Shown here: piece by piece, positions 3,001-51,300 of the stretch
How positions within the stretch are numbered: the stretch's first letter is position 1
How the letters are laid out: each line of letters begins with the position of its first letter
Source: Haliotis cracherodii
Lineage: Eukaryota
Reading direction: 5' to 3'
Length of the DNA stretch: 64,000 nucleotides
Assembly: GCF_022045235.1 (NCBI RefSeq)
Contig: NW_027266264.1
Location: forward strand, 56,668,001-56,732,000
Notes under the pieces: model-generated
The model's input: the letters and a program-made list of their open reading frames with translations, nothing else
The model's database searches: none
What the model was told of the DNA's origin: nothing
Program-made: the position numbers and the translations under genes

Positions 3001-3029
3001 TATAACATTTGTCAGAGCAGCTAGGAACA
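1..3029. repeat. 38-bp minisatellite (~80 copies, runs off window edge)
   Basis: Unit aacatctgagagttattacatttgtcagagcagctagg with minor variants. Confidence 0.97.
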
Positions 3030-3194: not shown

Positions 3195-3375
3195 CTGCTG
3201 GGAGTGTCACACCTGGAAGTAATGGGGCTGCGTCGCCTGACATAATGGCCTGACATTCACTGAAGACTCTAGCAGCTGTTGTCTGGGATGCCGTAGCTTC
3301 AGTTGTGATGTTGTTCACACCATCCTTGGCTTCTAATATGACTGCATTGTTTGCCTCTGCTTGTTGTTTTGATGC
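3195..3375 (-). CDS. Laminin exon 32 (coiled coil, Pro-rich break)
   Basis: ctccag|ASKQQAEANN...PLLPGVTLPA G|gtatgt; next exon presumably outside the window. Confidence 0.8.
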
Positions 3376-6300
3376 CTGGAGTTCCCACACAAAGACTATG
3401 ATCAATACAGGATCGTTTCCAGCTTCAGCTCAGAAGAATTTTATTATCTGTGTCTTTAACACTCTAATTCTCTGCATTTTGCTGTGCAGGGTTATGTTCC
3501 TTGGATGTGTCAGGATTCTTGGTTTTATTGGTTTGAATCCTGATTATAGCCTTCGGATTGTCGGCACCATATACGAGGGGCGTTCTTTAAGTTTTGCAAC
3601 TTCAATATAAGACCAAGTCTGTACAGTTAAATCACCCACCCTAGCTCCCAGTGACTATTTCCTGTTCCAGCAAATGAAATCAGCCCTACGTGGAAGACGC
3701 TTCCAGGATGACGAGGACATAAATGCTGCCACAGAGGCGTGGTTAGAGGGCCAATATGTGCATTTCTATAAAAGTGGTAATAAAAGCTTGAAGGTCAAAT
3801 GGAAGAGTGTATTGAGGTGAATGGAGATTATATTGAAAAATAAAAATGCAAAAGATATTCTGCAACTTGGTCTTGTATTGAAGTTGCAAAACTTATTGAA
3901 AGCCCTGTGTAAATACTTGTGGGATTTTGACCCCTTTTCATTTGCAGTAGACATCTTTAAATGAATAATGTTGAACTTGATAACAAATTTCATAAAAAGG
4001 TATTTAGTAATAAACAGCATATTTTGAGACATATTGTTTTGACCAGCACCATACTATGCATGGTAGTATCCCCCCTTGGTAAATCAAACCCAATTTATGC
4101 AATAGTGAGTGAGTGAGTATGGTTTTACGCCGCTTTTAGCAATATTCCTGCAATATCACGGCGGGGGACACCAGAAATGGGCGTCACACATTGTACCCAT
4201 GTCGGGAATCGAACACGGGTCTTCGGCGTGACGAACGAACACTTTACACACTAGGCTACCAGACATCCCCCAATTTTTGCAATAACCCTCCCAGAATCTC
4301 ACATAATATATTTTACATATTTCACATATAGTCCTAATGAGCTGATAAGGAAAGTTTTGGACAAGTTCAAATAAGGTGAAATGTAACATGATAATAATGA
4401 CAGTTTTACCTGAGCTTGTGTCTGGTGTACAGAAATCATGTTCACTTTAGTCTGCAGATCATTGAGTTGTGCATCGCTGGCCGTGAGTTCACCAGACTTA
4501 GTCTTGTAGTTCTCTCTTATACCAACTTCTTTAGCCAGCAGTCCTGCTACAGTAGCAGCCTAAATGAAAACAATAATAGTAATAATACTACAATAACATT
4601 TAGAATTAATTCACTAAATGGGTTGGGCATAATAAAGGTCTGCATATAAATAACAAGAGTCAGCAGAAGATGACAAATTTCTATCTAATCTGTCTGTCCG
4701 TATACAAGAGTAGTTATCAAGCTATAAAAACAATAGCATTGAATTGTGATTTCGAACTTTGTATTTCTATTTTAGGTACACATCACTATGAACAGAGTCA
4801 CAATCAAACTTGTTGCCATGGACACAGAAACAAATTATATTTTTTTAAATTACTAAAAGAATATGTCCTTAGTAGCAAAAAGCACCACTTCATCCCCTGG
4901 TCAATGGATGGGGGTCATTCAATCCATATCGTATATCTAGGGTAATGTATACTTTTCTTCCCTAGTACCATACTTTTAACAGGTCAAATCCAAAAGAATT
5001 GTTCTTTATTTTAATGTTCATTTCTACCAAATCTAGGGTTATGGGTTATTCACAAAAAAATTGTTGTATAATTAAATGTTCATATCCACCAAATCTAGTG
5101 CTTTGGGCCATGCACAAAAATATAGTTCTATAATTTAATGTTTATTTCTACCAATCTAGGGGTTTGAAAACCAAGAAGTTGTATGAGGACTGACCTGTCC
5201 TTCTGCCTTAGTCCTCATGTCCTGCAGGCTCTGGTCACCGGTGATCTGCAGATAGGTTGTGTTGGCCCGGTCCAACTGGGGGCTGAAGTTGAGGCTGAGT
5301 GACCCTCCTCCAGTGCCCTGACTGCGGTACTGAAACATCACATCGTCATCAGTCTCCTGTACATGCTGCATCACTCACTGACTCGTTCACTCACTCCAGT
5401 GACCTGACTGCAGTACTGAAACATCACATCGTCATCAGTCTCCTGTACATGCTGCATCACTCACTCACTCACTCACTCACTCCAGTGACCTGACTGCGGT
5501 ACTGAAACATCACATCATCATCAGTCTCCTGTACATGCTGCATCACTCAACTGACTCGTTCACTCCAGTGCCCTGACTGCGGTACTGAAACATCACACCA
5601 TCATCAGTCTCCTGTACATGCTGCATCACTCACTCACTCACTCCAGTGCCCTGACTGCAGTACTGAAACATCATATCGTCATCAGTCTCCTGTACATGCT
5701 GCATCACTCACTCACTCACTCCAGTGCCCTGACTGCGGTACTGAAACATCACATCGTCATCAGTCTCCTGTACATGCTGCATTACTCACTCACTCACTCA
5801 CACACTCACTCACTCCAGTGCCCTGACTGTGACATCCTCACATTCACATATGGAAGATCCAGTAAAGCTCCAGAAGGCAGGGTTTACAGCTTCAAGTCAA
5901 GGGATTCATTGTTTCATGATGTCAGTTTGTTACAACAAATAATATCTACTCAGCTTTGCTAGGAATAGTTGAAGATTGTACCGTTTGTGCTGTGACATTG
6001 TACTGCTGGAACTTGTACTCGTAGTTGTTTCCTTTCTGTGTCTCAGTTTGAGCAAGGTCAAGGGTGCTAAAGCTTTCAGTAAGGAGGCCATTTAGCCTCG
6101 CATCTTCAGAAATGGATATGTTTTTCTGAAGACCCGCTGCCATATTCAAGCTGGCAACCTATAGAGAAAACAAAAAGGATTTGGCAATTGTCGTAAAGAT
6201 TGCCACCATAACACAATGAAAGTCTCAAAATAATATTCTTCATTCCCATGCACAACCACTCCTATCTTTACTTTGTTTTCTGAAAAATGTAATAAGTACA

Positions 6301-9300
6301 ATATGGCCACCCACAGCACACTAAAAACTCAAATAAAGTCATAACTACACCTATTCTTGGGACCTTTCCCTGAGATCGTAGACAACAGGCCATCATGCCT
6401 AGTTTAGCCTATATATTACCCCACTGCAGGGCTGCATGTAGGAGTTAGAAAAAGGACAGCACATTACTGTTACATGGTTGCTCCACCTGACAAATTAGAG
6501 TTACCTCCCTTACAGAAATGTGTATTACATCGCCATTTTGTGATAACAAGAACTCCTTGCAAACCCTCTCTGCATCCACCAGTGCATTGTTGTTTGAAAA
6601 AGAAAAGAGGCAACATGTATGACCCATCAGCAAAGAATTTAAACCATTGTTCCAGTTACTGATGGCCTCACATCAGACTGTTATGATTGATGCACCATTG
6701 GGATGGAATATATCTTCAACTGACAAATCAGTAATCACTAAAATGCGCATCTGCAAATGTCCGAACATTTTTCAAACTCATCTTTCAACCCTCACATGTA
6801 ATATCATTGACTACATGCATCCTGCAACAGTTTTGTAATACCTTCTGTTTGAGTTGCTCCACCTGCTGTTTGGTGCTGTTTTCCTGAAGAGTAATGTTTG
6901 CTGTCATCTCACTGACCGTGCTGTTGTTGGTGTCGGTCAGACCGAGGTCTGTCATGGCTTGCTCTAGCTGTGTGTGAAGAGACTGCAACAGAATCCACTT
7001 CATGTACAGCATCACAGAAATGCTAACCACTGTGAAGACATTCTCCCTTTGCATTTTTACAACTGGACTGATATTCATATAAATCTTTGCAAAATTATTA
7101 ATAATTTTGTCACAATGTCTATAAACAGCTTTTTGTGAGAACAAGAAGACCTATTATACACAGGCTTTTCCAGATTAATCCTGTAACTGAAGGACTAACC
7201 GTCTGCTGAATCCCTTTTGATATTGCCTCATGTACGAGTTAGTGAGTGTAATTTTACCACGCAATATTCCAGCAGTATCATGGCAGGAGACATCCGAAAT
7301 AGTTTCACACAATGTACAAATGTGGGAATCAAACTCATGCCTTTGGCATGGTGAGTGAATGCTTTAACCACTAGGCCATCCCACTGCTCCATGTTGGTTA
7401 GACTATTCCTTGAAACAACATGAAGCTGGTCTGTCCTTACCTGAAGTTCTTTGTCTTGTGCCTGGATTCCAACAATATGCTGTGACACTGTATATGTTTC
7501 CTGCCATTTTTCTTCCAATTTCCTAGTATCATTACCCAAGGATGTTGAACACACATCACACCCTGCAGGAGGTATAAACAAACAAAAGAAAATTACAAAC
7601 AACTATTTAAAATTCCATATTTGTTAAGATTTGTTTGTTTGTTGTTTACTGCTGCACTAAGCAATATTCCAGCTATATGACAGCGGTCCGTAAATCGAGT
7701 CTGGACCAGACAATCCAGTGATGGACATCATGAGCATCAATCTAAGCAATTGGGATATGATGACATGCTTTAACCAAGTCAGTGAGCCTACTGTGTTATC
7801 TCCTACTTGTGTTAATAGATTTCAATTTAGGATTGACTGTGTATTTTTTTCGGTTCATTGAGGTATGAATCGAAAAACCGATGTGCAAACTTTTGTAAGA
7901 ATCCGCATAAATAGCGGATTCTTACAAAAGTTTGCACATCAACGGAGAGTGGGATTAAAACAATGTTCATTGGACCTGTCTGTTAAGGCAAGAGGCGAAA
8001 AGACTTGCAACAGTCAGACTGTAACGAACCGGAAGAAATATGTCCGAGAGAAGGCGGCTGTTTCAAATAACATGGTCATTTACTGCGTGATTCAAACATT
8101 ACTTCCCTGATTACAGTAAAACACAGTTGGAGAAGTGCTAGTTAGAAATGAAACCCGAAGACATGAAAGTTGAACCGAGGCGAGCGGGAAAAAAACAGGC
8201 GAGCGAGCCTGCACGTTTGCTGTTTCATTCAATCTTAGCCTTCTGTTTCAAAGGATAGTTTGGACAATGAATATGCATGAAAGTCGCTAAAAGTCCTGTA
8301 CATGACGATACACGTGAGCAAAAAGGGAATTCCCTCGACCGTAATATTGGGATTCACCGACATTCCGCAGTAATAAAAGTAGTGCGCAGCGGTGGGCGTG
8401 GCTTAATTTTTTACATTCATTGGGAAATGAATGCAATAACACCTGACCAATTCAGCTAATCAGAATGCAGGAATTTCCATCAACACAACGAAAATTTAAT
8501 TATTAACATATCAATTAAATCTAAATTGTCCATTGACATCATTAATATGTTGATAGCAAAAAACGCTTTAATAAAATATATTGACATCTTGTAAATTCCA
8601 ACGGCTCCATTGTGAATGAAATCAACTAACAAAATAACAAAATGCTTATAGGGTTGAAAGAGATGTCTTTTGTATAAATATTCCTAGATTCTAAAATAAT
8701 CAAATTTTCTAAACATTGAAAATCCCCATCCATTTTAGCAACTGGACATCCTCATCCAGCGTATTTATCTTCATTCTACTTTGGTCCTGGGCCCAATCAC
8801 CACCATACATTTGGTTTTACTGCAGTTCAACTGTTGCAATGCTAAAAATAAATATCCAGTCAAATTACACTATTCTTTCATGATTCGAATAAAGCTGCAG
8901 TATCAATAGTATATTCAAAATGCCATAAGGAAAGTATTGTAGCATAAGGCCTTCCCTGTTCCTGTCCAAATAGTCAGCAGAACATAACTTTATAGCTGAA
9001 AGTCAATTTGTAACAGCCTTCTATTTCAATTATAAAATATCATGGCTTCGTTTAGAAGAGACAGTGATTTTGAATGGAGATCTATGCCGAACGCTCTTTC
9101 AGAAGAAGCATTGTGCTTGGTTGTCAGGCTGGTGACATAATTCTTCTGAGATGAAGCTCTTGTGGCCAATAGCTCCAGCGTATATATATCATTACAGCAT
9201 GGAAACAATGGCAAAAGTGAGTGTGTCTCACTAATACCCCCGACCCACCTAGTGTGTCAGTAGTTTCAAATCAAATAGCTAGGATAGGGTTAAGGTTTGA

Positions 9301-12300
9301 AAAATTTATTCAAAAAATGGAAAATTAATAAAAAAAAATATTTTTTTTTGACTGCACCCCCATAAAGACAGACGTGCATTCCTGACAATACCTTTGCATC
9401 CAGTGTCGCTGAAGTCTATAAATAGAGCCTGGCAGCTGTCACATGTCCGACCGGTCACTCCTGGCTTGCATGGGCACTGACCAGTCGCTTTGTCACATAC
9501 CGAAGCATTCCCACCGACAGCCCCAGTCAGATTGCAGTTACATGCTACAAGAAGACATAGTTGGAAGTTACACTGACTACTGTTACACTGTTAATATATC
9601 TTGTTAAAGTTTTCAAGATTTTCATAAAATTAACCTCAAAGCCCTGTTTTTGTTTGTTTTCTCCTGGTGTCATACACTTACCAGTACATTCTTGATCTGG
9701 TAGACCAAAGTAGCCATCAACACATGTATCACACCGTTGCCTGGGGGCAAGAACATTGGCCTTGCATACACACAGCCCCTGGTCTGTACACTGGGTGGTC
9801 ACACTGCCTTTCTCCACACAGTTGCAGGCCTGACAACCTGTAAGATAAAACAAAACTCATCCTGGGCTTATAAACCTCCAGTGACGTCATCTTATTGTTC
9901 TCCAGTCTGGTTAAATCTCCAATCTCATTAAAATCGGATCATAGTTCTCGCTACCGCCAAACAAAGATCTGAGGACATCCCATTAGGGGTCACGTCAGAA
10001 CGACCTTTCATCTGACCAATCAGAGCTTCGCTTACCAGATCAAGAAAGTGACATTCGGAATGTGAATTCTGATAATGCAACCTCGAAAACGTTAACACAG
10101 GATATTCTGGACAATAGTTACGGGTTTAACAACTGAATCCATACACTGTAGACCATCTATTAGCCATACCAGAATGTTCTTTTGTTCAGGTTTCAAATTT
10201 GTAATCAAGAATTTGTCAAAATGTTTCGAAGGGTTGTCGCCAATTTGACATTAGTGCCGTAAAGCACGAGAAAGCTGCTTTCTGATTGGCTAATGTCGAC
10301 TTCTTGTCAGTCCTTCTATCGTACTGTCAAAGTTTGCGCAAGGTCGGTCTGATGTGACCTGTAATGGAATGTCCTCAGATCTTTGTTCAGCGGTAGCGAG
10401 AACAAAAATCTTATTTTAATGAGATTAGTTAAATCTCATAAACAGGGACATTATTATTTCCCAGGAATTTTATTAATACAATTTCTGTTTAGATTGTGAC
10501 GTATGAATGCTTGAACACAATGTAATGAAATGTAAAATGATAAATTTCTATCTCTACATTCATGAGGCTCGAACACTCAACCTCCGTATCTGTAGCCCAG
10601 TGAGTGTACCACAAGGCTACAGAGGTGCTGATAATTTAAATCACACTGCTTTTAAAATTTTTTTTTTCAAGTACCATAAGAAGCCAGCAACAGATATTTA
10701 ATACCCATTTCAAAAGGTTCATGGAAAGTATGCTTGAAACCTAAAATGTTGATAAATGTTTTAGGTTTCAGTTTTCAGTTTATATAAGGATTGACTGTGA
10801 ATACTTTTCGGTTCATTGACAAGCCCATAAAGTCAGCAGCCAAACAACAGAGAGTAGGATAAAAGCAAAGTTCATAGGACCTGTCAATCAAGGCAAAAGG
10901 CGTCCGGGGAAAAGGCGTCTGTTTCAAATAACATGGTCAGTTACCGCCAGGTTCAAACATTAGTTCCCTGAGAACGGGAAGACAAAGTTGGAAAAATGCG
11001 GGTGAGAATGAAACCCAAAGACATGAATTTCGCTAAATGTCCTGTGCATGACAAACTATTCATTGGTTACACATGAGCAGAAAGGGAATTCCGTTGACTG
11101 GAATTGGGATTCTCCAACATTCCATGATAATAAAAGTAGTCCGCTTCAGTGGGCGTGGCTTAAACATTTACATTAATTGAGAAATGTATGCAATATAACC
11201 TGTGACCAATTCAGCCAATCAAAATGCAGGAATTACAATGAACACAACGAAAATTCAATCATAAGTTAGATAAAACACTTCCCCTCAGTTTTTTATGATA
11301 TTTAAACCCGTACCGGCTGGATAGAATTATTAATTATCATAAAAATCCTCGTCTTGTGCTTTATCCTACACTAGTCTCTGAACATATCAAATGTTCTTTG
11401 CTTGCATTAAGAAAGGGACACATTTTTATCTGGACATACTGGAGTTCTGTAACTCATGAAATTGATGCTGGCATGAAATGAAAAATGTGAGTGTCTTTAG
11501 CTTGCATTGATAAAGTGGTGCCTTTTAATCTTGACATATTAGGTGTCCTGTACATCATGAAACAAATGTGAAATATGTGTGTCCCTTGCTCACATTAAAT
11601 AAGTGAAACATTTTTATCTGGACACACTGAATTTTTTGTCATCTTATGTTCGCGGTGCACATGCATGACAAACATTACAAAGCTCACAATAAACAATGTA
11701 ATTGAGTGCGAGATTTAGAGAGTGCTTCTCACAAAGTTCCACATTTAAAGGTGTCCTTATTCATTTTCAGTGATCTATTCATATAATATTCACCCTTATT
11801 TTGTCTTTTACACCAAATTGAATCTATTTCTGCACATAAATAACATTATGACTATTCTCTGGCATTAACATTTGACATTTACACAAGTTCATCAAGCTGT
11901 TATGACCGTCGCCAGCCATGTATGCTGGCATCTTTGTTCTTGGTAACCTTGTCAAATAATCTTAAACACCAAGGTAGTGAAAATGTCAAGTACATCAAAA
12001 GCAGTCATTATGGATACATAACACTGCTCACTTACATTCAAAGGATCGTGCTAACTCATATAACAACAATCGAAAGCTGTACAATCCTCGTTGGTGACTC
12101 AATCTATCTCATCTGAACATTCATTATTTGGAATCTCATGCTCTTGATTTCATTGAAGTAAGATCACACGTCAAGCAGTTAAAGTTAAGTTTGAGAAGAT
12201 CGCAAATAATATTAAATCTACCAGCTATCACCCCATACTGTAAGAGGGAATACAAAGTCAACAGCCTTGGTGTTATCATTTGCTGATCATATTTTTTAAA

Positions 12301-15300
12301 AGTTCAAAGGCAAATACATAAAGTTAACTTCTGATCTCAGGCCCTTTGACACATTTCTGCCAAACTGTGATGATCTTGTTATTAATTCTAGAATTTCCAA
12401 AAGAAAACGATAACTTAATTTCACAACAATCTGACATTCTCTGCACCCAAAAAGACCTAAACAGAAAACGTTAATGCCAGAAAATAATCAGCCTTGATTA
12501 TCTGCCAAACAGGCAAAAAAGTATACTGAATAAAAGTGACGACACCAGGTGTTTGTGAAAAGGGCAAGCATGTCCTTCTCTACCGGTAGCACCCGCCATT
12601 CACACAATTTGCCTTAAAAGGTAAAGTGTTTGTTAAATTTTATGTCACCTGTTGATAATGCTGCACAGCAATACTAAAATTTTCCATGTATATTTCTAAA
12701 TATTTACATGATAAGGAACATTATTCTTTTTAAGGATGGTTGGCATTCAACATTCCTTGTTGGTTTAACCAACCTACATGGAATGCTACATGAAAAACCT
12801 GTTAAAGTTGCAAGCTACTAATTTGGATCTGTCAGCTTCCTTATTGGAACAGGATTGTCCGACTTATGACAGCAGATGACAGATCAGCTAGGTGGTATAG
12901 CCTCGTGGTTAACCCTTAGGCTGCATGTCGCGACAAGACTTGTGCAGCCCTATCGAGCATGGCAGAGCATGTCGTGACCAAGTTTGGTTGAGATATCTCT
13001 CATGGTTTTTGAGTTCACGAAAACGTGATGGATGGACAGCACCCATTCCTATATCCCCCTTCCACTTCGTGACGGGGGATAATATACCTGCCACCTCCAT
13101 CAACACTCACCTGGCGGGCTAGTGCTATAGCCCCAGTAGTTGTCCAGACATGTGTTGCAGCTCCTTCCCCCAACCCCAGGATAACAGGGACAACTGCCAT
13201 TGTACCGGTCACACACAGCGTCGGTCGATCCTGTTGAGTTGCACTCACATACTGGAATATTAAATATTAAATATTCATTGTTGTACAAGGAATGTCAGCA
13301 CCACCTTTGTGTGTATGATACAGTCAAATCTTATACTCACAATCACAAGCATTCGTCACCGAGTTCCGATAGAAGCCAGTTATGCAGAGTTCGCAGTGGT
13401 TTCCTGTTGTGTTGGAGTCACAGCCATTACATATTCCTGTGACTGTATCACAGATATCAGTCCTGTTGTTGCAGTCACACGCTGTGCAGCTTCCGGTTCC
13501 AGGGATTGATGGCTGACCGTAGTGGAACGGTTTACACCTGACAAAGGGAACAGCATTTTGTGACTCACCTCATGTCAATTAAGTCAAGGAGTAGAAACTA
13601 TGAAAACTGAATATCAAATGCTGACTGGACATTTAGATGTGAAACTGAATTGTTTTGTAGGTCCCATCAAGTTCAGCTGCTATAGTCTAGAGAGGAATTT
13701 AACTTTTACAACCAGTCCTAGAGAATATATTGGCTGTTAGAATAATCACCTCCAGAGTTAGAGAGGAAGCTGCAAATATTAAAAGATAGTTACTATTGTT
13801 AATAATTTGAAGAATACTACCTCTATCAGATTTGTGCCAGAAATCCTGTTTTTCAGCTGTCATCACACTATAAAATCTTAATATTTTCAACAGAAGTCCT
13901 CTTTACTGTGAACTATCCATGACCAGTTGAGACACTAATATTAGCAGGTGAACAGGTTTAGGAAGGGAGGTGCTATTAGTATCTTGACTGGTTATGGATG
14001 GTTGACAGTTAAGAGGACTTCTTTTGAAACTCTCAAGATAAAGTAGTGTTACAACAGTGTAAAAAGAGGATTTCTGGCACTGATGCAAAAGAAGATTAGT
14101 ATTCTAAAGAACTACAGCAAAGACATTGTATATACGTCTTTGACTACAGATAATACTACAATGTACTGACTTGTCACAATGGTCGCCTGTGTATTCCGGG
14201 TTACAGAAACACTTAATGACACTGGCTTCCTTGTAGCAAGTTGTGTTTACAACTCGTGGGTCATAACACGGACACTGGCTGCAGTCGTTTGGATTCCCAA
14301 TGGTAGCGTTACCATAGTAACCAGGTTTACACATCTCACAATTTGCACCTGAAACAGTCAAACATATTTTCTATTAAACTTCGAAAATGATGGATTACTT
14401 TCTTGTGAATGAGTCCTGTAAGTTTGTAAGTTGTCTAACATTTGTTCCCTCGATTTGGACATGTAACAGTGATTAAATATCCATTTTACATAATGGAATT
14501 TGAACCACTGACTTTCTGAATCGAGGTCAGACGCCTTGTCCACATGGCCAAAGAGGTTAATCCCATTAGCAAACTGACATGGTACAGATGTCAGCTGTGG
14601 GATGACTCCCTGCTACAGATGGATAATCTCTAATCTTTGTAGCTCTTTAGTGCTTTAAGTCAGTATTTCATCTTCAGATGAAACAAATTGAGTTCATGTG
14701 ATGCAAGTTCCTGCGGCTACCTGTGGTTTGATGCTGACAGTCGAGACAGTTCCCGGTGTTGGGGTCACAGGTAGAGGCATGGTTATTACAGGTGCAAGGT
14801 TCACACACACCCAGATACTCATGGCCGGTCACGTTGGCACGCTTGAAGCCTGTTGCACAACTCTGAAGAGGAAACATTACCACTCACGCCATGTTCGACA
14901 AGGAAATTATAGACCTATGTCCATCATAACTGTACACTTTAACATTGACCTATAATGGCTATATTACGCTAAGAGTGTTTTGTGGAACAAGATCCAGGGT
15001 GTCGTTTTACAAAACAACCTCAGCGCTATGATCGTCATAAGTCTATGTTTAGGTATGGTAGTTACGATCACTTTAGCGCTAAGATCACTTTGTACAACAG
15101 CACCTTGGATGTCCAATGTCACTTGAGAGTATAATGCACGAATAACTAGGGCTGCAACGAAACACCTAGATCACGATACGATACATATCTCGGTATTTAC
15201 ATCACGATTCGATACGTATCTCAATACGCGACGATACACATAATGACAAGAGAAGACAAAAGATAAATGAATTAGTTTATTAAAATGAAAAATAAAAATG

Positions 15301-18300
15301 AAAGTGAATGAATTTTCATGAGTCATAAAATATGTACTGTAATGAGTATTTGAACTTAATCATCTGACATTTCCATGTAATGGCAAGCAACCAGAAAAAG
15401 TAACAGTCCTACATATTTGTGAGTTGTGACTAGATAGTAATGTCTATAATTGGGTGATGGCTGCGTATGTGAGTTGTCATGTTTGTCGTGCTGCCCGTCT
15501 ATTACAACATTGCATGACACATGCGACAGCACGTTTGATCTTTGCACACGTGTTTGATTCCATCTTCAAATGTTACTAGGAACCCGAAATGTTCCCAAAC
15601 TACTGATTTGTGAATCCCCGGTGGTCTCTCCAGCAAAGGACAAGCGTCTGCTTTTTCCGACATGTTTGAGTTAGAGACCGCTCAGCCAATCAGAAAGCTT
15701 GAACTGCTGCTGATATACAAAGCTAGCATACCCGCTGTATTTTTGAAGACGTACATGTGTGAAGAGAAAATTATATTTTCCCTACTTTTTATGACTCGAA
15801 TGTTCGAATTTGAAATTAATTTAAAAACCATTTAAAATGTATCTGTGATAGAAGTTTATTAAAAAAAAATGTATCATGGAAAATCGAGATACAGCACCTT
15901 ACAAACTGTGCACCATATCGTATAGAGTGAATCGCGATGCATCGGTGTCCCGGGATATCGTTTCAGCCCTATGAATAACCCAGTGACGTGAGAAACAACA
16001 CATCTCATGACAGGTCATTCTATTTCAATGATCTGTCAACATTTAATATATGAGCCCTTTAGGCTTGAAAAAATAATAGTCTTGGTTCTCAGGCACCACC
16101 CACTTCATCAGAAAGTCTACCGCATGTTTCGTTTTATTTCCATTTGAATTCCTTTTTAAAACCCTAACACCGCCCATTGCATTATAGTTTAACAAAATAT
16201 TGTGTGTCTGCTGAAGTATATAAGTACAACAACCACTGGGCCATCAAAAAAAATAAAAACATTCTCCTTTGTCCTTATTTATTCCCTTTCTGCTTAGCAG
16301 TCATTATCATGCACCACAATGTTACAAACCTCGCACGACAGTCCTGTATATCCTGTTCCACATTCACATTTCTCGACACTACTTGCTACAAGGCCCACAG
16401 CACCATCTAAACTGTACTCAAGACGTGACAAGCTGCAATGATAGAAGGTCTATAGTTAAGAAGGGGCACGTACAACACGAGACGACAGCTAGGTCAAAGT
16501 GCAGACAAGAATATTCAGCTAGTCAAATCCTGCACAACCTCCTTGTTATCATGATAAAGTTTCTGGTTTGCAAAAGAAGAAAAATAATACTATGAAGTGT
16601 ATAATGTAATATCAGTGAAAAGCTAACTAAACTAATAGTGAGGTTTCAAGTTAAAAAATGAAAAATGGTTTTATGAAGGTGAAAAAAATGTATCTTTGTC
16701 ATTTTATTAATATTTGGCCGTTACTTTAAGTAAAACTTTATTATGGGCTAAACATACCCAGGATGCAGCATCTTAAGCAAGAGAAGTGGAATGAGAGCAC
16801 TGTATCAACTTGAACCAATTCGTTTTGATTTATTTTTCACAATTTTTATAGAAAAGAAGTGCCAATTCTTTTATTCAGATTTGGAATAGACAAGTTATGA
16901 AGTTTTGAAACTATCCACATCCTGGCATATTAACAATCCCTATAGTCATCATCACTTGAAATAGAATCACAAAATATTGCAATTATTAATTAATGAACAT
17001 TGAAGCATTAATTCCAATACTTATAAAATAAAAAAAAAGCCATTACTGCAATTTTGGTAGGGATAAACATCACTGGGCTTTGATCACATGGTTACAATCT
17101 GGGTACGGATCGGTAGTCAGGTGACTTCGAGTGATTATATATAGCATTGCGTGCATTTTGAACTTGGTTAATAGCAGTTTAAATACTACATCTGCACAAT
17201 TTTTACTATCAGTTCGTGCTGGTAAGGTACGTACACTGCACATGCAGTTAAATATAGCTGCTTGAAGTCAACTGACTGCCAATCCTAGCCCGAATTGTAA
17301 CATGATCAGAAATGATAGTCATCGATAGTAAAATGGGTATTTCTTGAGAAGGGCACTTTGCAATTTTGGTCATTACTCTATGTAATATTTCTTATCGTCA
17401 GATAAGGTTTTCACCTAATTATTACCAGCACACGTGCAGCTGTCTTTGTTAATTACCGTATTCGACGTAATAAGCGCCCAGGGTGCCCTTAAATTTAGAA
17501 ATAGGGAGCTCTTATTAGAATGTTATTTTGGTGAAAAAAACAGAGTTAAAAGATAAATCTCGTGGTTTATGCTGACAGCCTGAAATGATTATGTATGACA
17601 GATATATTTTTCCAGAATTAAATTCCCCATAATTAAAGGTGCATAAAACACATGAGTGTGTATTATACGCAAATAAAAAAGTCTTGTGTACATTGATCAA
17701 TTGGAAGGGGTGCTAATTGGGATTGTTCACTAGCCAATATCTTAGCAAATGTCGCCATGGGGCACTTATTAGAGCGGGGCGCTTATTACGCCGAATACGG
17801 TATATATTTTCGCGATTCTATTTCAAGGACTATAGTCGTCAGTGCCGAATCACATTGCTTTTGGCGAATGTGGAAGATATCCTCAATATGGTTTTGCACA
17901 TACATGAGTACTGACCTATTGGACTAAATTAATGAATATGCCCAATTTAAGATATCACAAAAAATATTTTCAAATGCTATTACAAGCAAATAATAAATGT
18001 AAATGTAAATGGTTCTCAAAATTCCTTCTTCAATTTGGCTTTGAATAGCTGTGGAAATCACAGTTTGTATACCATAAAGAATGTTTTGCTGGAGAATATC
18101 TGTTCATTTGAGCTAAACTGACCTCTTTCAACTTTTGTATTACATTATCACAATTTTGTTGTTCCGGTAGTTTGTATCATCTGTGTCTGTGAAAGCAGCA
18201 TATATCATAGAACTTACTAAGACACATGATCCGTGTCTGTGAAAGCAGCATATATCATAGAACTTACTAAGACACATGATCTGTGTCTGTGAAAGCAGCA

Positions 18301-21300
18301 TATATCATAGAACTTACTAAGACACATGATCCGTGTCTGTGAAAGCAGCATATATCATAGAACTTACTAAGACACATGATCCGTGTCTGTGAAAGCAGCA
18401 TATATCATAGAACTTACTAAGACACATGATCTGTGTCTGTGAAAGCAGCATATATCATAGAACTTACTAAGACACATGATCCGTGTCTGTGAAAGCAGCA
18501 TATATCATAGAACTTACTAAGACACATGATCCGTGTCTGTGAAAGCAGCATATATCATAGAACTTACTAAGACACATGATCCGTGTCTGTGAAAGCAGCA
18601 TATATCATAGAACTTACTAAGACACATGATCCGTGTCTGTGAAAGCAGCATATATCATAGAACTTACTAAGACACATGATCTGTGTCTGTGAAAGCAGCA
18701 TATATCATAGAACTTACTAAGACACATGATCCGTGTCTGTGAAAGCAGCATATATCATAGAACTTACTAAGACACATGATCCGTGTCTGTGAAAGCAGCA
18801 TATATCATAGAACTTACTAAGACACATGATCCGTGTCTGTGAAAGCAGCATATATCATAGAACTTACTAAGACACATGATCCGTGTCTGTGAAAGCAGCA
18901 TATATCATAGAACTTACTAAGACACATGATCCGTGTCTGTGAAAGCAGCATATATCATAGAACTTACTAAGACACATGATCTGTGTCTGTGAAAGCAGCA
19001 TATATCATAGAACTTACTAAGACACATGATCCGTGTCTGTGAAAGCAGCATATATCATAGAACTTACTAAGACACATGATCCGTGTCTGTGAAAGCAGCA
19101 TATATCATAGAACTTACTAAGACACATGATCCGTGTCTGTGAAAGCAGCATATATCATAGAACTTACTAAGACACATGATCCGTGTCTGTGAAAGCAGCA
19201 TATATCATAGAACTTACTAAGACACATGATCCGTGTCTGTGAAAGCAGCATATATCATAGAACTTACTAAGACACATGATCCGTGTCTGTGAAAGCAGCA
19301 TATATCATAGAACTTACTAAGACACATGATCCGTGTCTGTGAAAGCAGCATATATCATAGAACTTACTAAGACACATGATCCGTGTCTGTGAAAGCAGCA
19401 TATATCATAGAACTTACTAAGACACATGATCCGTGTCTGTGAAAGCAGCATATATCATAGAACTTACTAAGACACATGATCCGTGTCTGTGAAAGCAGCA
19501 TATATCATAGAACTTACTAAGACACATGATCCGTGTCTGTGAAAGCAGCATATATCATAGAACTTACTAAGACACATGATCCGTGTCTGTGAAAGCAGCA
19601 TATATCATAGAACTTACTAAGACACATGATCCGTGTCTGTGAAAGCAGCATATATCATAGAACTTACTAAGACACATGATCCGTGTCTGTGAAAGCAGCA
19701 TATATCATAGAACTTACTAAGACACATGATCCGTGTCTGTGAAAGCAGCATATATCATAGAACTTACTAAGACACATGATCTGTGTCTGTGAAAGCAGCA
19801 TATATCATAGAACTTACTAAGACACATGATCCGTGTCTGTGAAAGCAGCATATATCATAGAACTTACTAAGACACATGATCCGTGTCTGTGAAAGCAGCA
19901 TATATCATAGAACTTACTAAGACACATGATCTGTGTCTGTGAAAGCAGCATATATCATAGAACTTACTAAGACACATGATCCGTGTCTGTGAAAGCAGCA
20001 TATATCATAGAACTTACTAAGACACATGATCCGTGTCTGTGAAAGCAGCATATATCATAGAACTTACTAAGACACATGATCCGTGTCTGTGAAAGCAGCA
20101 TATATCATAGAACTTACTAAGACACATGATCTGTGTCTGTGAAAACAGAATATAGCATAGAACTTACTAAGACACATGATCCGTGTCTGTGAAAACAGAA
20201 TATAGCATAGAACTTACTAAGACACATGATCTGTGTCTGTGAAAACAGAATATAGCATAGAACTTACAAAGACACATGATCTGTGTCTGTGAAAGCAGCA
20301 GGAACCAAAATGACTTCAACGTTTGTAAGAGCCAGCAAAAATTGTCCCCGTGTAACGGCAGAACCATTTTCCCACTTCCATTCAGCCTCTATCAAGCCTA
20401 TGTCGATTTTGGCTGTAACATTCACCGCCAGAGCATTAATGTCATGAACAAGTCGCCTCTTGTCTCGTCCAATCAAAATTGCTGTTGCTGGGGTTCCCAC
20501 TGCTACAACAGGCTCGACCTTGACCTCAACCTTGATGGTGGTCCCGTAGACGGGCAGCAGTGACCCTGTGAGCTGTGGAACTCTCCAATACACATTGCCT
20601 GCTGCACTTATGACTGTCCTGACAGACACGTGGTTCGTGGCTGGATCGGTGAAAGAGGTCACCAACTGGGATGCGTTGGTAACACCATCTTTATCTGCCA
20701 CTGATACTGTCGGTGTCAGCTGTCCTTGAGATGACTCAACAAGTGTGGCAGTTTTCTGAAATAGGAAATCCAGGATTTCGAGCACTTCAAGATTTAATTT
20801 TGACATTTAACAGAAACTTCTATACTGAAGGAACCCACCTAGCTGTAGCTGTGCAGGAAAAGAAGGGGTACATATTGTGATCACAAATTATAAACATACA
20901 AAGCTTGACGAATTCATGGTAGTCATGCTATTTGTTGAAAATATATCATCAATGTAAATGAGTACCGTATTCGACGTAATAAGCGTCCCGCTCTAATAAG
21001 CGCCCATGGCGATATTTACTAATATATTGGCTAGTGAACAATCCCAAGTAGCACCCCTTCCGATTGATCAATGTACACAAGATTTATTTATTCGTGTATA
21101 ATACGCAATCGTGTGTTATATGCACCCTTATTATGGGCAATAAAACAGTATATAAACAGTTCAGGACGTCAGCATAAACCACCAAATTGATCTTTCCACT
21201 CTGTTTTTTCCCACCAAAATAATATTCTAATAAGAGCCCCATATTTCTAATTTTGAGAGTGCCCTGGGTGTTTATTACGTCGAATACGGTATGTCATTCG

Positions 21301-42300: not shown

Positions 42301-45300
42301 ATCACACTGTACCAGGCACAGAGACACCTCATCAGACTTCCATTTTGGAAATGGCAAATGAAAACCTCATTCTACTGTTCATTACTTTACTGACGGAGAT
42401 ACAATAAATAACTGATGGTGACGACTACCGATATAAGGCCACAACAAGTCAGTCTTTGGATTTTCATCCAAATCTTTGCCAAATGTCAGATGGTAGACAC
42501 TAATTTTTAAAAACATTTTTTTAAACAATCTCATCAAGACATGTACATTAAGTGATGGATGAAGCAAGAATGTTTTGTAGGACTATGTATATGGTGTAGT
42601 TCACCAAGTTAAAAGGAGGCAGCACACATCGCAAGGCGCCATTGATACTGCCCATTTCAATGATTAAACATCAGATCCTTGTTGTGCAACCTTTACAAAA
42701 AAACTTCATCAATAAAAATAAGAACAATTTCAATTTAGTTGGTTTGTTCCACATTCTACCAACCCGACCGGTTGAGTTATGATGAAACATAGAATGTCAT
42801 CCATTGTATCATGACGTCACAGCATTCTGCATGATGTTATCGCCTTGCAGACTAATTTTATGTCTATCTCACAACTCTGAAAGTTTACTTTGAGAGAGAG
42901 TCCAAAAGAAAATTACTGATAACTTTTGTATTTTTCAATGTCTTATATCGCGAGGAAGTGTTATGCCCATTGTAGTGGCAAGTTGTTCCTAACAAGCCAC
43001 ACAAGTGCCACGGTTTGATGAATTGAGAGGGGAGCAAGACTTGCTTAATAGTTCTGCATCCTCGTGGTATATGTCGGCCGGCTACCCCTCTGCAGCTGAC
43101 ATGGACTTCAATGTTCTTAGCAGAGACCATATAATCTATCATATGATCTCTGCTCTTAGGTAGAGCCTCAACCATTAAAAGTCCATCGCACCATACTTAA
43201 ACACCTGCTTTCCAGTTTGTGATATTGAGAATTCAACATCCAAACATGTAATACTCAATAACACCTGCAAATCTGAAAACATTGCTCATACTATTAACCA
43301 CTAGTTTGCCTTGCCCACATTCAATTATTTATAGGCTGCTTTGCTGTGAATGGCATATTGATGACTGCATACCTTCACAGGCTACACCGTACTGCCAGGC
43401 TTTCTGGTTGTAGAAGGGGAGACAGCGCTCACAGAACTGGCCCACTGTGTTGCCGCCACACACACATTCGTAGATCTGGGTCTGTGCACTGAGTACACAG
43501 TCTGTGGCATGGCCGTTACACACACACTCCGCCATCACCTCAAGCTCTGATATGGCGAAGTGTTGCTGAAAGATAGACATGACATCTCAATTACTTTCAG
43601 ATCCGAAAGGACAGAAGAGTCGCTAAAATATAGACATGGTTTCTTGATTACTTTCAGCTCCGAAAGGACAAAGAGTCGCTGAAATATAGACATGGCATCT
43701 CGATTACTTTCAGCTCCGAAAGGACAAAGAGTCGCTGAAATACAGATATAATGTCTCACAGAAAAACAATCTGATGGTCAGTTTGACTTACAGTTTTTTT
43801 GTACGACAAACAATGACCATCAGTCATTTATTTCGTATATGACATTATAAAATGTACAAGCTTTAAATAATAATGACTCCCTGAATACAATCCGATCTCG
43901 GCAATGTCAGACAGGTCCATTTTTTAATGAACGGTGGGGGGGGGGATAAAGTCTTGTATTTCCAGAATATTCTCACAATTTTCCTGTCAAACATCTGTAC
44001 CATTTCTCCATATACTGATTGTCATATCTCTTCCACTTTTGGCTGCAATCGTTTGGCCATTGCGTTTATCTGTGTTACCCAGCTACATCTATGGGGAATA
44101 ACTCATAAGATACTCCCCTCTCAAAAATAACTTGTCGTCTAACTTACGTCAACAAGTTGTGAGAGCGGAGAGCATGTTCCAATCTCCAGATATGATGTAA
44201 TTTTATTCATTTTTTTGTCATTTGTCATTTATATATAACGCATTGTTCTACCCCTATCAGGAAATCTGGCAATTCCATTGGCAGGGATAAGAATGGATAA
44301 TTTCCTTTTCAGCTGAAACCTCTTTGCAATGGAGCGTGGTCCATAATTAGTGGGTGTTTAGGGGTAAGCCATGAGATTTTAATAAATTTGTGGTCACTAA
44401 AACATGCGGAAATTTGCAGATCCGCGGAAGATTCTCACCCCTGCATTGGTTTGTCCATACAACGTGAAGAAACAATTCATTTTGATGTAGACCCCCAAAT
44501 CATGTCACTGACACTGACCTCAAATATTGATTCAATACATGATCAGATGATGAATACTGACTTGTCTGCTAGTAAACAAGATGGCTTCTGATACAACATT
44601 TTACGGTTCACAGCAAAGTTACTGTAACGAAACAGAGGACAGTTTAAAGACTCTCTGAATTTGTATTGCATTTTGTTATAACAAAACAAAATGTTTACTC
44701 TTGATCAGGTTAACATGTGAAAACAAAGACCCATGGGCCCAACCCCTACAGGGCTCTGACCGGCCCTTGGCCTGCTGCCTCGTTCCGATCAGACAACCTC
44801 AGGCGTCGGGTCATCGGGTCCTTGTTTTTGCATGTTGACCTCATCAAGATTAATTGTTATATTCAGTCAGGTGAGCTCACAAAGAAGGTGCTGATTTCTA
44901 TTTGTCAGTGATCAGCACTTATAAGACAGCTTAGAACAGTTGAGATACTGACTTCATTCTTTCCTAGTAGCCTAGAATTGCTTTCCATTTATTTGTCTTT
45001 TACAAATCAAATGAAACAGTGTACTCAATGATGATCTGATTTTGATTTCTAAACATTCAGAGCTTTCTGTTTAAACCCATCATTTACAAGGTAGAGAGAT
45101 GCTATTCATCAGTTGGTCCAACTTAGACTAACATATCGGCTTGGTTAAAAAGTAATAGTGATTGAGTGAGTGAGTTTGGTTTAACGCCGCTTTTAACAGT
45201 ATTCCAGTTATATCACGGCGTGTCAGCTTAATGAGGGAGGAAAGCCCCAAGTGATGCAGGTCTCAGACGTTTACCACTTCGGTGAAACCCACGAGCACGG

Positions 45301-48300
45301 GTATGGTGCTGACAAACCTAGAGACATAATTGGGGCGAACCGGGGTTCGAACCCACAATAATAGGTTTCTGGTGTGCCCAAGGTACGCAACTCTGCACAG
45401 CGAATCGCAGCGCCTTAGACGACTGGGCCACCCGTGCCCCCTAAGAAGTAATAGTCAGTAATAGACTTCTCAATGTATTTGTGAGTGCTTGAGTATGGAT
45501 TTACTCCGCTTTTTGCACTATTCCAGCAATATCATGGCAGGGGACCCTAGAAATGGGCTTCACACATTGTACCCATGTCGGGAATCAAACCCGGGTCTTT
45601 GGCGTGATGAGCGAACGCTTTAACCACTAGGCTACCGGACCACCCCCTCAATATATTTGTAACTAAATAAATCAATGATCATTTGATTATATACATCATC
45701 ACCATTAACCTGAATTTACATAATTTCTAATAAAAAACTGATGACATGACATAATTTCAGTCTGTGACTTTAGCCACTTGTCAGTAGCCAGAGTCTAGTA
45801 AAATGTCTTTCAGTCTAGTAACCTTTACTATTACAAGTCCACTTATTAACCTATGTACTGAAGATGATGTCAAGTGTCAGGGTCAGGCGTGAAGACTCAC
45901 ATGATTTGGGGCACAGATTGTAATTATATAGTAGAATATTGTTATATATAGAAACGGACTCCGTCTGTCCGTCCGTCACGTTTCGTTTCCGGAGCATAAC
46001 TCAGAAACCGTTTAATATTTGTTCATGACACTTTGCAGGTCTGTCAAGTACATGCTGAACTGGTGCATTTTGCTATTTAGAAATTTTAGAAATTTTTATT
46101 TTTTACATTTCCATGGCAACAAGATGGACTTAGGTTTCCAAACTCTTTTTTTTACAATTTCCATGACAAATTCCACCTCGGTTAAAAAAGGTTAGGGTTT
46201 GTTTAGATTTAATTAAGTCATAAATTCTGCAACAGGGGCGGAGGATATAGCCACGTTAGTGGCAAACTCTTGTTTGAATTTCATTAATAATCAAAATTAC
46301 ATTGACTGTCATTGAGACAAGCAATCATGTGCTCCTTTGAAAATACATATATTTTCATGTCATGATTTAACAATACCACTGATGAGAGATGACAATACAC
46401 TGCACTGCCAAGTTAGCAGCCTGAAGCGTGACAATGACGTTTATTGATTCTGGATTGTACAGACCCTAACACCTGTTACCAAGCCAGATCTTTTGTTTGT
46501 TGTAAGCACATAACTATTGTATGTGTCTAGTGGAGGAATCAATACTTTCTTTACCTGTCACAAAGGCTTCATACACCGACTTAACTGGCGTTTGTAGTAA
46601 TTAACAATGAAAGTTATATTAATTTTTATTACAGAATGCAAGGCATTCTCACAGGGAGACAGCCATGGCAACGAGGTTAGGCCACAGTAAATGTCTTCTT
46701 TGGAATATCCTCAAAAATTTCTCATAGAATTTTTCTGATTATGAAAAGGTTACAGTGGATGCCAAAACTAGGACTCAACAGATGTAATTAGGTCCTATTA
46801 CCTAAATTCAATGGTATCTCAACAGTAAATGTTATCATTTGAAAATGACTGTCACCACATTCTGATAAAATACACATGAAGTCCTAAAACTATTATTATT
46901 TTTTAATAACTTTTTTTTCAGAATTACATGCACTAACTGTAGTATCATTAAAAACAGATACATTTAACCCGTGAAGATCTGGATTAGAATTGTTTTTCAG
47001 CAACCCATGTTGCGAGAAGTGACTAACGGGATCGGGTGGCCAGGCTCACTGACTTGATTGATGCATGTCATTGTATCCATTTTGCATAGATAGATGTTTA
47101 TGATGTGAAGCATAATGATTGTCTGGTCCAGACTCGATTATTTACAGATCGCTGTCATATAGCTGGAACATTTAAACAAACAAACAAACAAACATATAGC
47201 TACATGTAATATAAATACCCTAGATCATCGATCATCAAGACAATCCCCTCCAGCTTAAAACTACCCGGTAATCATATTCCCAAGACTGTCCGAAGACATC
47301 CATCAGAGAGGGTAACAGTGCTTGATGAAATGCCTTGTTTCTATGGAGTCATTGTTGTAAACATTGCAAGACTCAAGAAAACTCAAAGCTTTGCATGACT
47401 GTGTACTTACAAAGCGAAGTGCTTCTGGGCTGAGAGTCCTTTCAATTTCATAGAACTCAATTCGGATATAGCGGGCTCTTGTCCATTCCTGAAAATAAAA
47501 ATTGCCAATGCACAATTATTCCAATATTATATTTTAATTGTGATATTGGATACATATTTGAATTTCTCAGTACCTCAATCAATCACTTCACAGTTTCATG
47601 CTATGGTTTTTGCTTTACTTGTTTTGTTTCATATAATACCCACATGTTATACAAAAAATACTTAAAGATTTACTCTGCATACCTAAAAGAAATTGTAAAA
47701 ATGAATTTCAAAAAGACAATTGACTCTCCCAGAAGCAAATCTTGGATTGAAGAAAAAGACAAATAAGATTAATGGTGAAATCAGAAGCTGTGCCGATAAG
47801 CAGATATATAAGGAGAAATGGAGAACCATAGACGATCTTACCCTGAGTTCACTTGGAACAGCAGTGAAATTAAACTGAATCTGAAACAAAAAGTGTGTCA
47901 GTGTTTGACAGCTTTATCACAGGCTTCTCTTGAATGAATAATGTCTTATTGATGCTCTAATCTCTATTCATGCTAATGTGGTCATTATTTTACAATCGAT
48001 GTACCATCAGGTAGGATGCAGTCAGTATTTAACGATACCATCAGGATGCATGCAGTCAGTACTTTACAATACCATCGGATAGGATGCAGTCAGTATTTTA
48101 CAATACCATCAGGTAGAATGCAGTAAGTATTTAACGATACTGACAGGATGCATGCAGTCAGTATTTTACAATACCATCAGATAGGATGCAGTCAGTATTT
48201 TACAATACCATCAGGTAGAATGCAGTCATTATTTTACAATACCATCAGGATGCATGCAGTCAGTATTTTACAATACCATCAGATAGGATGCAGTCAGTAT

Positions 48301-51300
48301 TTAACGATACCGTCAGGATGCATGCAGTCAGTATTTTACAATACCATCAGATAGGATGCAGTCAGTATTTTACAATACCATCAGATAGGATGCAGTCATT
48401 ATCTTACGATACCATCAGGTGGGATGCAGTCATTTTTTTACAATACCATCAGATAGGATGCAGTCATTATCTTACAATACCATCAGGTAGGATGCAGTCA
48501 GTATTTTACAATACCATCAGGTAGGATACAGTCTTTATTTTACAATACCATCAGGATGGATGCAGTCAGTATTTTACAATACCATCAGGATGGATGCAGT
48601 CAGTATTTTACAATACCATCAGGTAGGACATGTAGGATGCAGTCATTATTTAACAGTACAATCAAGGGAGATGCAGTCTGTATTGTATCCAACCTGTAGT
48701 AAGTGCTTTGACCACACGTTCAGTGGTGCATATGGTGCACAACAAATGTCAATTAATATTATAATGCCGTATTCGACGTAATAAGCGCCCCCCTCTAATA
48801 AGCGTCCACGTCGATATTTGCTAATATATTGGCTAGTGAACAATCTCAATTAGCACCCCTTCTGATTGATCAATGTACACAAGACTTATTTATTCGTGAA
48901 TAATACGCACTCGTGTGTTATATGTACCCTTAATTATGGGCATTTAAGTCCTGGAAAAATACATCTGTCGTATATAAACATTTCAGGCTGTCAGCATAAA
49001 CCACGAAATCTACGATCTTTTAACACCAAAATAATATTCTGAAAAAAAAAACCTATTTCTAATTTTGAGAGCGCCCTGGGCGCTTATTACGTCGAATACG
49101 GTAATCATTATCATTATTATAACAGTGAACAGTAACCCACATGAACCAAAACAACAGGAAATCATTTCACTTGAACTTTGAGATGTGTCCAGCAGTTGTA
49201 ACAGTATTATTTACAAAGTTTCTAGTTTTCAAAGTGATATTGAACTGCTGTATGTATCACTGTCAACTCACAGTTTCAAAGGTGACAGCTGTGTTCTGGG
49301 TGTATCGTGAACACACAGCATCTCCAGGGACAGTGGGGAGGTCAGTCGGGGGCCTACTGAACTTGGACTGGCACTCCTCGGCAAAGTTGACCTTGTACGC
49401 CCATGGTGCATACCCCATTGTAAGGTTGTCTGACTTGTGGATCGCCATGAAGTTGGGCCTTTTGGCATCTCCCAACTTCAAGATAAGCAGTTGCACTGTG
49501 AACGACTGCAACAGATTTTAAAAGTATTTTACTCCCTTGAAAACATCACTATCTTTAAGTGGCACATTAATTGTTTGTTTGTCTGTCCTTTAACGCCACA
49601 TATGGATTAACACCACTTTCAGAAATATTTCTGTAATATTATGGGAGGGGACACAAGAAATGGGCTTTGCACATCACACCCATGTGGAGAATCAAACCAA
49701 GGTCTTTGGCATTATGAGCAAACTGTTCAACCACTAGGCTGCCACACTACCCCTCAGGGACATTTGATAATGATAAGAAAGAAGAAAATAGCTTCCTCTA
49801 CACAACCATGTGTGTTGTTGGGATTTCCATCCAGACATCATGAGATAGCATTCACATTGTCTCATCTTTCTGAGGTTTACTGTTGTTCTAAATGTCAACT
49901 CTAACCGGTCTTAGTCAACACGACAAGAGTATACATGCTACACTGATGTCGTGTAGAAAGGTCTGTGGCACTACCTTGGCACCAGGTGTTCACATGAGTC
50001 TGTTTTGAACAAGTTGTGGTTTTAACCTCAGCTTCAGAACTGTTTTCTGGTCTACATCTGGTGATTTGGCAAGTTCTTGCCAAAAACAAGGTAAAATTGT
50101 TTCCAACTTCAAGTTTTTTACTTTAATCTGTATTCAACAGAAAACAATATATAGTATCGTCTCTGTCACAGACATCCTAAATTGACTTCTCAACAATTTC
50201 TAATTTTTTGTCAAATGAAAAAGAAATTATTTCATTAAATATTTGAATAGGTAGAGAAATGCCCTTGAAATGCAAATCTAAATTGAAACATGTTAAATAG
50301 TTAAACAGAATAAACATTGTGGGGTGGGGGGATGGATGGGTAATTCCATCCTGGATATGGCATACTGGTAAATAAATCCTCAAATGGTCCCAAATTGCCC
50401 AAAATTTTGTAGTGATCATTGCTTTTGATCATTTCATGTAAATTCTTGAGATAGTTCAACGANNNNNNNNNNNNNNNNNNNNNNNNNNNNNNNNNNNNNN
50501 NNNNNNNNNNNNNNNNNNNNNNNNNNNNNNNNNNNNNNNNNNNNNNNNNNNNNNNNNNNNNNNNNNNNNNNNNNNNNNNNNNNNNNNNNNNNNNNNNNNN
50601 NNNNNNNNNNNNNNNNNNNNNNNNNNNNNNNNNNNNNNNNNNNNNNNNNNNNNNNNGTGCTTGCCCACTGAGATACCATGAAATAGTTTAACATGGATAC
50701 TTCACTCAGTCCTTGTTTTATCATTAACGAAGAAAGAAATGTTATTAATGGTGACAGATACAAAATAATAATGTAATGTCACCAAAACAGGTCCATATTT
50801 TCTTATACTAGATTAAAAACAAAACAAAACATTTTTTGTTATTGCCCAGGGCTTTGTACCATAATTGAATCCAAATTTGATGCATCAGTGATGCAATTCC
50901 CTTGTTTGAAATATATCATATATACCATTTTTAGGTGAACAATTGACTTGCCTTTGCATATGTGGAGCAGGATACCCTCACTTTCTTGTAAACACCTGGT
51001 ATCATCACTATTTGATAGTGATTTATAATCATAATATTTGCGCATCAATATTACTTCCTGATGAATAATGAGTGTTTATGTATTTGTGGTTTAAAGATAT
51101 CCATTTAACCAAGTTTCAGAAGTCTGTATTTTTAATCTGACTCGTTTTGCTAACAAAGTAAAATGCATCAGTATCAATTAAAGAACCTAATAAATATGAA
51201 ATAAAAAACCGTACCTGACTTTTTTCCAAATGGTATAGAATTCTAATGATAGATGGTTCTAACAAGTTATAACCAAATCAAAGAGTCAATAAGTCTGATA

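Follow-up and report, generated by a model that had tools for sequence, protein, structure and literature searches.

Lancelet 'mirage' minisatellites have been reported in Adh3, the globin genes BflGb6 and BflGb9, troponin C and PGBD5 (available text of PMC3087553, PMC3902484), and the accessible part of one of these reports terms their origin unclear (PMC3087553). In humans, the first unit of a 37-bp variable number tandem repeat (VNTR) in intron 7 of F7 spans the donor, and identical pseudo-donors lie downstream, according to the available text of PMC1557585. In human segmental duplications, repeats alter gene structure and novel introns are reported, as far as the accessible portion of PMC2812944 goes; the same portion cites Rogers' duplication model of intron gain. 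Here we describe the minisatellites of a laminin gene of the abalone Haliotis cracherodii, located in a 64,000-nucleotide stretch of contig NW_027266264.1 (positions 56,668,001 to 56,732,000; hereafter the window), together with those of 35 other genes of the same genome. In the window gene and in the 35 others, the first 50 nucleotides of intron next to an exon carry three to five times the repeat density of deep intron.

Like the lancelet mirages, as the available descriptions present them, the abalone arrays include tandem copies of the exon-intron boundary at either exon end, with duplicated AG or GT and locus-specific units. Lancelet mirages have a proposed role in intron gain and are described there gene by gene; in the abalone, in contrast, just 46 of the 253 out-of-sample arrays span a junction, and they mark the margin of a broader gradient of arrays that do not. 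The array at exon 19 of the laminin gene resembles the F7 VNTR in spanning a donor with pseudo-donors downstream. At F7, a single locus described without positional statistics, use of the most upstream donor was determined by experiment, whereas in the abalone donor use is deduced from the reading frame. As in the accessible account of human segmental duplications, boundary minisatellites differ between paralogs; unlike in that account, we found no novel intron in the 1004 abalone introns. The abalone arrays are a wider variant of a known repeat type, the mirage, and the measured gradient is what is added. A positional null test of this kind was not found in the literature searched, most subscription papers lying outside it.

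An independent model of 32 exons reproduces the exon numbering of the first-pass annotation of this DNA. In this model, the exons lie on the minus strand and encode 1748 codons in a frame without stop. Laminin_N, EGF_laminin and Laminin_B of Pfam match six of the eight exons scanned. Among the blocks listed, those of spliced RNA contigs agree with exons 21–26 and 29 within 2 nucleotides (nt), and none of these RNA-backed junctions touches an array. At the array-bearing junctions of the window, the open frame suggests normal splicing. The chain is likely alpha-like, since a frame left of the window begins with what is presumably a laminin G start.

Introns 1–31 contain 12 minisatellites by Tandem Repeats Finder (TRF; period of at least 10, array of at least 100 nt), which occupy 23% of the intron bases. 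Distances were measured from the TRF array ends to the modelled junctions. The gene and the arrays of the window are as follows.

3195..51750, minus strand: laminin gene, exons 1–32, continuing left of the window (exon model, Pfam, RNA contigs, downstream exons)
2..3029, minus strand: 38-mer array of ~80 copies, 165 nt past the exon 32 donor, extending beyond the window
4991..5161, minus strand: 62-mer, 2.8 copies, 33 nt past the exon 30 donor; absent from the list of the first-pass annotation
5308..5815, minus strand: 78/86-mer, 6 copies, likely across the exon 30 acceptor (an overlap of 22 nt with an acceptor at 5329)
18179..20300, minus strand: 50-mer, 42 copies, overlapping the exon 19 donor by 33 nt
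21725..23384, minus strand: 48/95-mer array, 1660 of the 1842 nt of intron 17; exon 18 acceptor 11 nt away
24350..26245, minus strand: 20-mer, 95 copies, 89 nt from the exon 16 donor (26335); degenerate copies extend to the donor
27785..28199, minus strand: 6-mer microsatellite, 85 nt past the exon 14 donor; excluded from the minisatellite count
29164..29422, minus strand: 43-mer, 6 copies, beginning 4 nt past the exon 13 donor
32286..33198, minus strand: 31-mer and 34-mer arrays, mutually related, 272 nt past the exon 11 donor
33841..34651, minus strand: 33-mer, 25 copies, 240 nt ahead of the exon 11 acceptor
38682..39558, minus strand: 25-mer and 33-mer arrays, mutually related, 62 nt ahead of the exon 8 acceptor
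43558..43746, minus strand: 56-mer, 3.4 copies, overlapping the exon 5 acceptor by 8 nt
48002..48628, minus strand: 34-mer, 18 copies, 121 nt ahead of the exon 3 acceptor
56841..58683, plus strand: inverted copy of the exon 30 array, 93.9% identical, ~24 units, 5 kb upstream of the ATG

Six of the 12 arrays span a junction or lie within 50 nt of one, against 1.9 expected (p = 0.006), and three span a junction, against 0.77 expected (p = 0.037). In this null, arrays were collapsed and seeds were permitted to straddle junctions; an earlier null without straddling seeds inflated the overlap result and has been superseded.

The window had itself been picked for the pattern, and an out-of-sample set was therefore chosen: 16 of 18 dynein heavy chain loci (partial spans) and 19 ABCC gene models, with exons predicted by homology. 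One of the ABCC exons shows 97% identity to a protein labelled Haliotis rufescens. Introns were mapped by a purpose-written spliced protein aligner, and only junctions well aligned on both sides were kept, giving 645 of 979 dynein introns and 359 of 722 ABCC introns. These 1004 introns hold 253 minisatellites, and ~18% of the intron bases sampled belong to such repeats. Array density, expressed per 10 kb of intron outside arrays, is 9.2 at -4 to 15 nt, 5.7 at 16–50 nt, 2.6 at 51–100 nt, 2.7 at 101–200 nt, 1.5 at 201–400 nt and 1.2 beyond 400 nt. The density within 50 nt exceeds that beyond 200 nt by a ratio of 5.1 (gene bootstrap 3.5–7.3), which becomes 3.2 (2.2–4.6) when interspersed repeats are masked; the families give 3.1 (dyneins) and 3.6 (ABCC), and eight filter settings give 2.4–5.2. 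A within-intron null yields 48.0 near arrays where 77 of 207 are observed. The fitted decay length in dyneins is 97 nt at both junction types, and microsatellites are graded likewise (ratio ~4, n = 52). Altogether 123 of the 253 arrays span a junction or lie within 50 nt of it, a share equal to that in the window, so the laminin gene is typical. The splice-site enrichment proposed from the window alone thus withstood comparison with random intronic positions in the window and in the 35 genes.

The arrays are largely unrelated to each other, as the first-pass annotation had also stated: 212 of 245 are singletons without a relative in the sample, and five of the six window units searched occur at a single site in the genome (1.18 Gb). 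No dispersed or transposable-element-borne satellite family was found in the sample, where recognised interspersed repeats enclose just 5 of 253 arrays, compared with 26 of 115 short duplications; such repeats make up 41% of deep dynein intron bases. A non-array length below 100 nt is seen in 9 of 222 array-bearing introns versus 5 of 782 array-free ones.

The junction bias grows with copy number. Its ratio is 0.95, that is, no bias, among 2-copy duplications, and reaches 1.8, 2.2 and 3.7 in the successively higher classes (trend p = 0.0001). With close paralogs dropped (28 genes, 222 arrays), junction-spanning arrays occur at 1.9 times the deep background (p = 0.003) and at 0.63 of the rate just inside the intron. 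The claim that the repeats nucleate at splice sites is disfavoured by these results, namely the absence of a 2-copy bias, the rise with copy number and the rarity of spanning arrays relative to those just inside.

A comparison of six ABCC paralog pairs revealed what becomes of the two parts of an intron. Next to the exon, 69% of the non-repeat intron sequence can be aligned, but past 400 nt only 2%; without exon anchors the values are 20–29% and 2%. Counted by row, 18 of 30 arrays within 50 nt are shared versus 1 of 17 deeper; counted by event, by hand, 10 of 22 are shared versus 0 of 16 (p = 0.002). The lengths of shared arrays vary between paralogs in the one haploid assembly. One acceptor has an array in 4 of 17 paralogs; since three of these arrays overlap the exon to almost the same extent, their births are not independent.

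Single exons are 98–100% identical in ABCC paralogs that are otherwise 36–76% identical by exon, which suggests exon-limited gene conversion, as judged from the sequence. Of the ABCC exon edges that match a paralog at 95% identity or higher, 25 of 167 bear arrays, against 26 of 481 other edges (within-gene permutation p = 0.0004; 0.009 without close paralogs). Some of these edges are identical at 19–20 of 20 synonymous codons, where the pair median is ~50%. As a side observation, single nucleotide-binding-domain exons are 95–100% identical between ABCC paralogs that are 40–70% alike in protein (L145–L213). GC-biased conversion was considered and set aside as weak: G+C at third codon positions is raised by 0.04 beside near arrays (p ~0.02), but it is up at the first two positions too, and paired tests are not significant.

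We lean towards the idea that arrays are born roughly evenly along introns and then survive and grow where an exon anchors them. Each unit is copied from the intron or junction where its array lies, and the 2-copy class indicates that first duplications would be spread about evenly. Between paralogs, intron interiors are quickly replaced by insertions and deletions, while exon-side sequence and its arrays persist. Deletions hitting the splice signal would be purged, and exchange or gene conversion pairing in the conserved exon may carry the flank along and re-homogenise it. An exon-side array so protected and re-homogenised would therefore last long enough to grow. The cause would be the exon as a conserved island, not the chemistry of splicing. 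The 'selective tolerance' of junction-spanning duplications offered in the first-pass annotation comes near to this, and it needs widening to differential survival of all junction-side sequence. Survival and anchored exchange are inseparable from one haploid assembly.

Several points weigh against exon-anchored survival. Copy identity shows no polarity toward the junction. At human minisatellite loci, a flanking hot spot and polarity are known; the abalone arrays share with those loci their G+C-richer units of 10–100 nt and an association with converted-looking edges, and differ in lacking polarity. A separate scan for perfect 2-copy duplications found four near and four deep (ratio 2.7, p = 0.22), a small sample that may be compatible with biased birth, and the 2-copy class is mixed and may include unrecognised transposable-element pieces. 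Spanning arrays are enriched 1.9-fold in the pooled set and 3.2-fold in ABCC; in dyneins alone the value is 1.5 (p = 0.15, not significant). The excess of short introns is not significant in ABCC alone (2 of 70 versus 3 of 289). The paralog comparison offers few events, all within one family, the dyneins are without close paralogs so that allelic exchange there is assumed, and arrays might drive conversion rather than ride on it. In addition, the sample covers two gene families of the genome, with homology-predicted exons and a filter that kept part of the introns.

The smooth decay over ~97 nt at both junction types, and the spanning rate at 1.9 times the deep background, are also what junction-linked mutagenesis would produce. 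Under this explanation, breaks, polymerase pausing or slippage at exon-intron edges start or expand the duplications, in settings such as nucleosome or methylation borders, splicing-coupled repair or R-loops. Units on the acceptor side share the T-richness of their surroundings (skew -0.33 at -4 to 15 nt), as if born in place, and a process boosting expansion would yield the copy-number trend too. We nevertheless find junction-linked mutagenesis doubtful, given the unbiased 2-copy class and the missing polarity; alone, it leaves the unshared deep arrays of the paralogs unexplained. The R-loop mechanism, one of several named in the first-pass annotation, gains no support, as G-rich units show no bias toward the sense strand (88 versus 82). 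A uniform process acting on old sequence might instead look biased if recent insertions that escape recognition dominate deep introns and G+C is higher in the DNA next to junctions, a reading that overlaps with the replacement of intron interiors in the survival explanation. We consider such dilution improbable. The transposable-element mask is unsaturated, its share of deep bases having climbed from 23% to 41% with each enlargement of the library, and masking cut the ratio from 5.1 to 3.2; assuming hidden repeats in 35% of the deep bases left, the ratio is still 2.0, and with 50% it is 1.5. The genome-wide estimate of hidden repeats extends to 40 of 2314 candidates scored. Arrays have 43% G+C versus 36% in introns, and exon edges beside arrays are ~3 points richer, yet past the splice signals intron G+C and 7-mer microhomology density are near flat, without a microhomology gradient.

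That selection keeps the arrays because they regulate splicing, or because they supply alternative sites, microexons or new introns, appears very unlikely. Spanning arrays do hold several sites as strong as the real one, 13 of 37 contain an AG...GT pseudo-exon, some arrays are common to old paralogs, and a review describes thousands of human repeats near splice sites as affecting exon inclusion (PMC13196383). Against this stand the unrelated units and the similar frequency of frame-keeping pseudo-exons in spanning arrays (5 of 37) and in others (15 of 153). No dynein intron is bounded by a single array, and the sole all-repeat intron sits at a position common to 16 paralogs. Lancelet mirages and the F7 repeat are reported as splicing normally in the available text of the sources (PMC3087553, PMC3902484, PMC1557585).

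The proposal in the first-pass annotation that these duplications are a route to new introns gained no support: intron gain by tandem duplication, after the Rogers model, was found in none of the 1004 introns, and no dynein array reaches both junctions. The all-repeat intron is an ABCC intron of 1664 nt (L170–L173), composed only of a donor-spanning 49-mer of 28 copies and an acceptor-spanning 68-mer of 5 copies, two different arrays at an ancestral position. Its origin by erosion was considered and not retained, because the 1.3-kb spacer of a paralog is 72% interspersed repeat and insertion fits equally. In the window, the pseudo-exons that keep the frame are 12-nt candidates only, in the exon 30 and exon 18 arrays.

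At the window junctions, as in mirages, the unit crosses the exon-intron boundary at exons 19 and 5 and likely at exon 30, the three places named by the first-pass annotation, and at none of the other 9 of the 12 arrays. The exon 30 acceptor is placed by the model, not by RNA; given several weak in-frame AGs, the overlap there may be 22 nt, 10 nt, larger or absent. By the splice matrix, the exon 19 donor is weak, and 41 GT sites of its array outscore it; the Laminin_B match ends 5 codons ahead of this donor, and later in-frame donors run into a stop. A search for homologs of exon 19 among proteins of up to 2000 residues gave no match. In each of the 21 dynein arrays that span a junction, and likewise in the three of the window, one or more sites score within 2 bits of the genuine splice site, and decoy splice sites occur in 44 of the 1004 introns. 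The exon 19 and exon 5 units have one genomic site each. On the survival reading, spanning mirages are the edge of the gradient and are likely tolerated since the outermost splice site is used.

The remaining positions that the first-pass annotation had listed were also recovered. Arrays start 4 nt from the exon 13 donor and 11 nt from the exon 18 acceptor, as claimed, and the asserted likeness of the exon 16 array to its donor is borne out, as the spacer between them is a degenerate unit (z = 8.0; z = 3.1 for the first 20 nt). Spacers at exon 8, exon 3 and the exon 11 donor are degenerate units as well (z = 5.2, 3.2 and 3.2), while five other window spacers tested show no unit likeness. For exons 3, 8, 11 and 32, the proximity is real as measured (121, 62, 240/272 and 165 nt), but array-junction distances of 120–270 nt are unremarkable by themselves. 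Despite the four degenerate spacers, the idea that near non-spanning arrays are decayed mirages is rejected in general, with exon-edge likeness at 2 of 56 near versus 0 of 56 far edges (p = 0.78). Other candidates were dropped: a donor-over-acceptor asymmetry of spanning arrays (15:6 in dyneins but 10:15 in ABCC), flank likeness (equal on the near and far array sides), unit lengths divisible by 3 (8 of 37, not significant) and kinship of the 38-mer and the 43-mer (p = 0.025 for a single picked pair).

The 78-mer unit of exon 30 has two genomic sites, both within the window, with the inverted copy 51 kb apart. This copy is bordered by apparent pieces of short interspersed nuclear elements (SINEs) and has 5 nt in common with one of them at its right end. 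A second inverted copy of a spanning array lies in a dynein gene (G000:C56), 12.6 kb off, mid-intron and 93.3% identical. As a guess, such inverted nearby copies could be local templated insertions. Intron 8 of the laminin gene is largely low-complexity and ACTC/GAGT-rich (window 37626–38181), and this 4-mer also terminates SINE-like elements and is part of the exon 30 unit. Intron 1 contains 194 N at window 50463–50656, a stretch that entered none of the tests. Left of the window, in the same gene, we observed three further arrays, which are uncounted: a 55-mer of 41 copies spans the donor of the next exon (L115 7453–9654), a 35-mer of 6.5 copies lies at the end of an open frame (L115 5292–5515), and a 36-mer begins ~37 nt past a likely donor (L115 1802–2292). 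A compact dynein gene (L034–L036, G000:C12) has 31 predicted introns in 24 kb and an exon CpG ratio of 0.38, below most paralogs, and its 23 confident introns hold no minisatellite.

With the gradient measured, together with its increase at higher copy number and the difference seen between paralogs, the origin of these arrays becomes a testable question of whether birth or survival is biased. We tentatively raise a broader possibility, to which we attach a rather low probability: in highly polymorphic animals, exons may be the sole dependable islands of homology, so that repair starts there, slips where homology ends, and both builds and copies minisatellites. If true, arrays would be copied at the homology edge from one paralog to another and, in inverted form, to sites nearby; exon-anchored exchange throughout the genome would leave lancelet mirages and the junction-side arrays of abalone as a single by-product, and the density of arrays next to exons would chart recombination between alleles and between paralogs. 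In molluscs, the arrays matter for the length of introns, the choice of splice sites and the annotation of genes.

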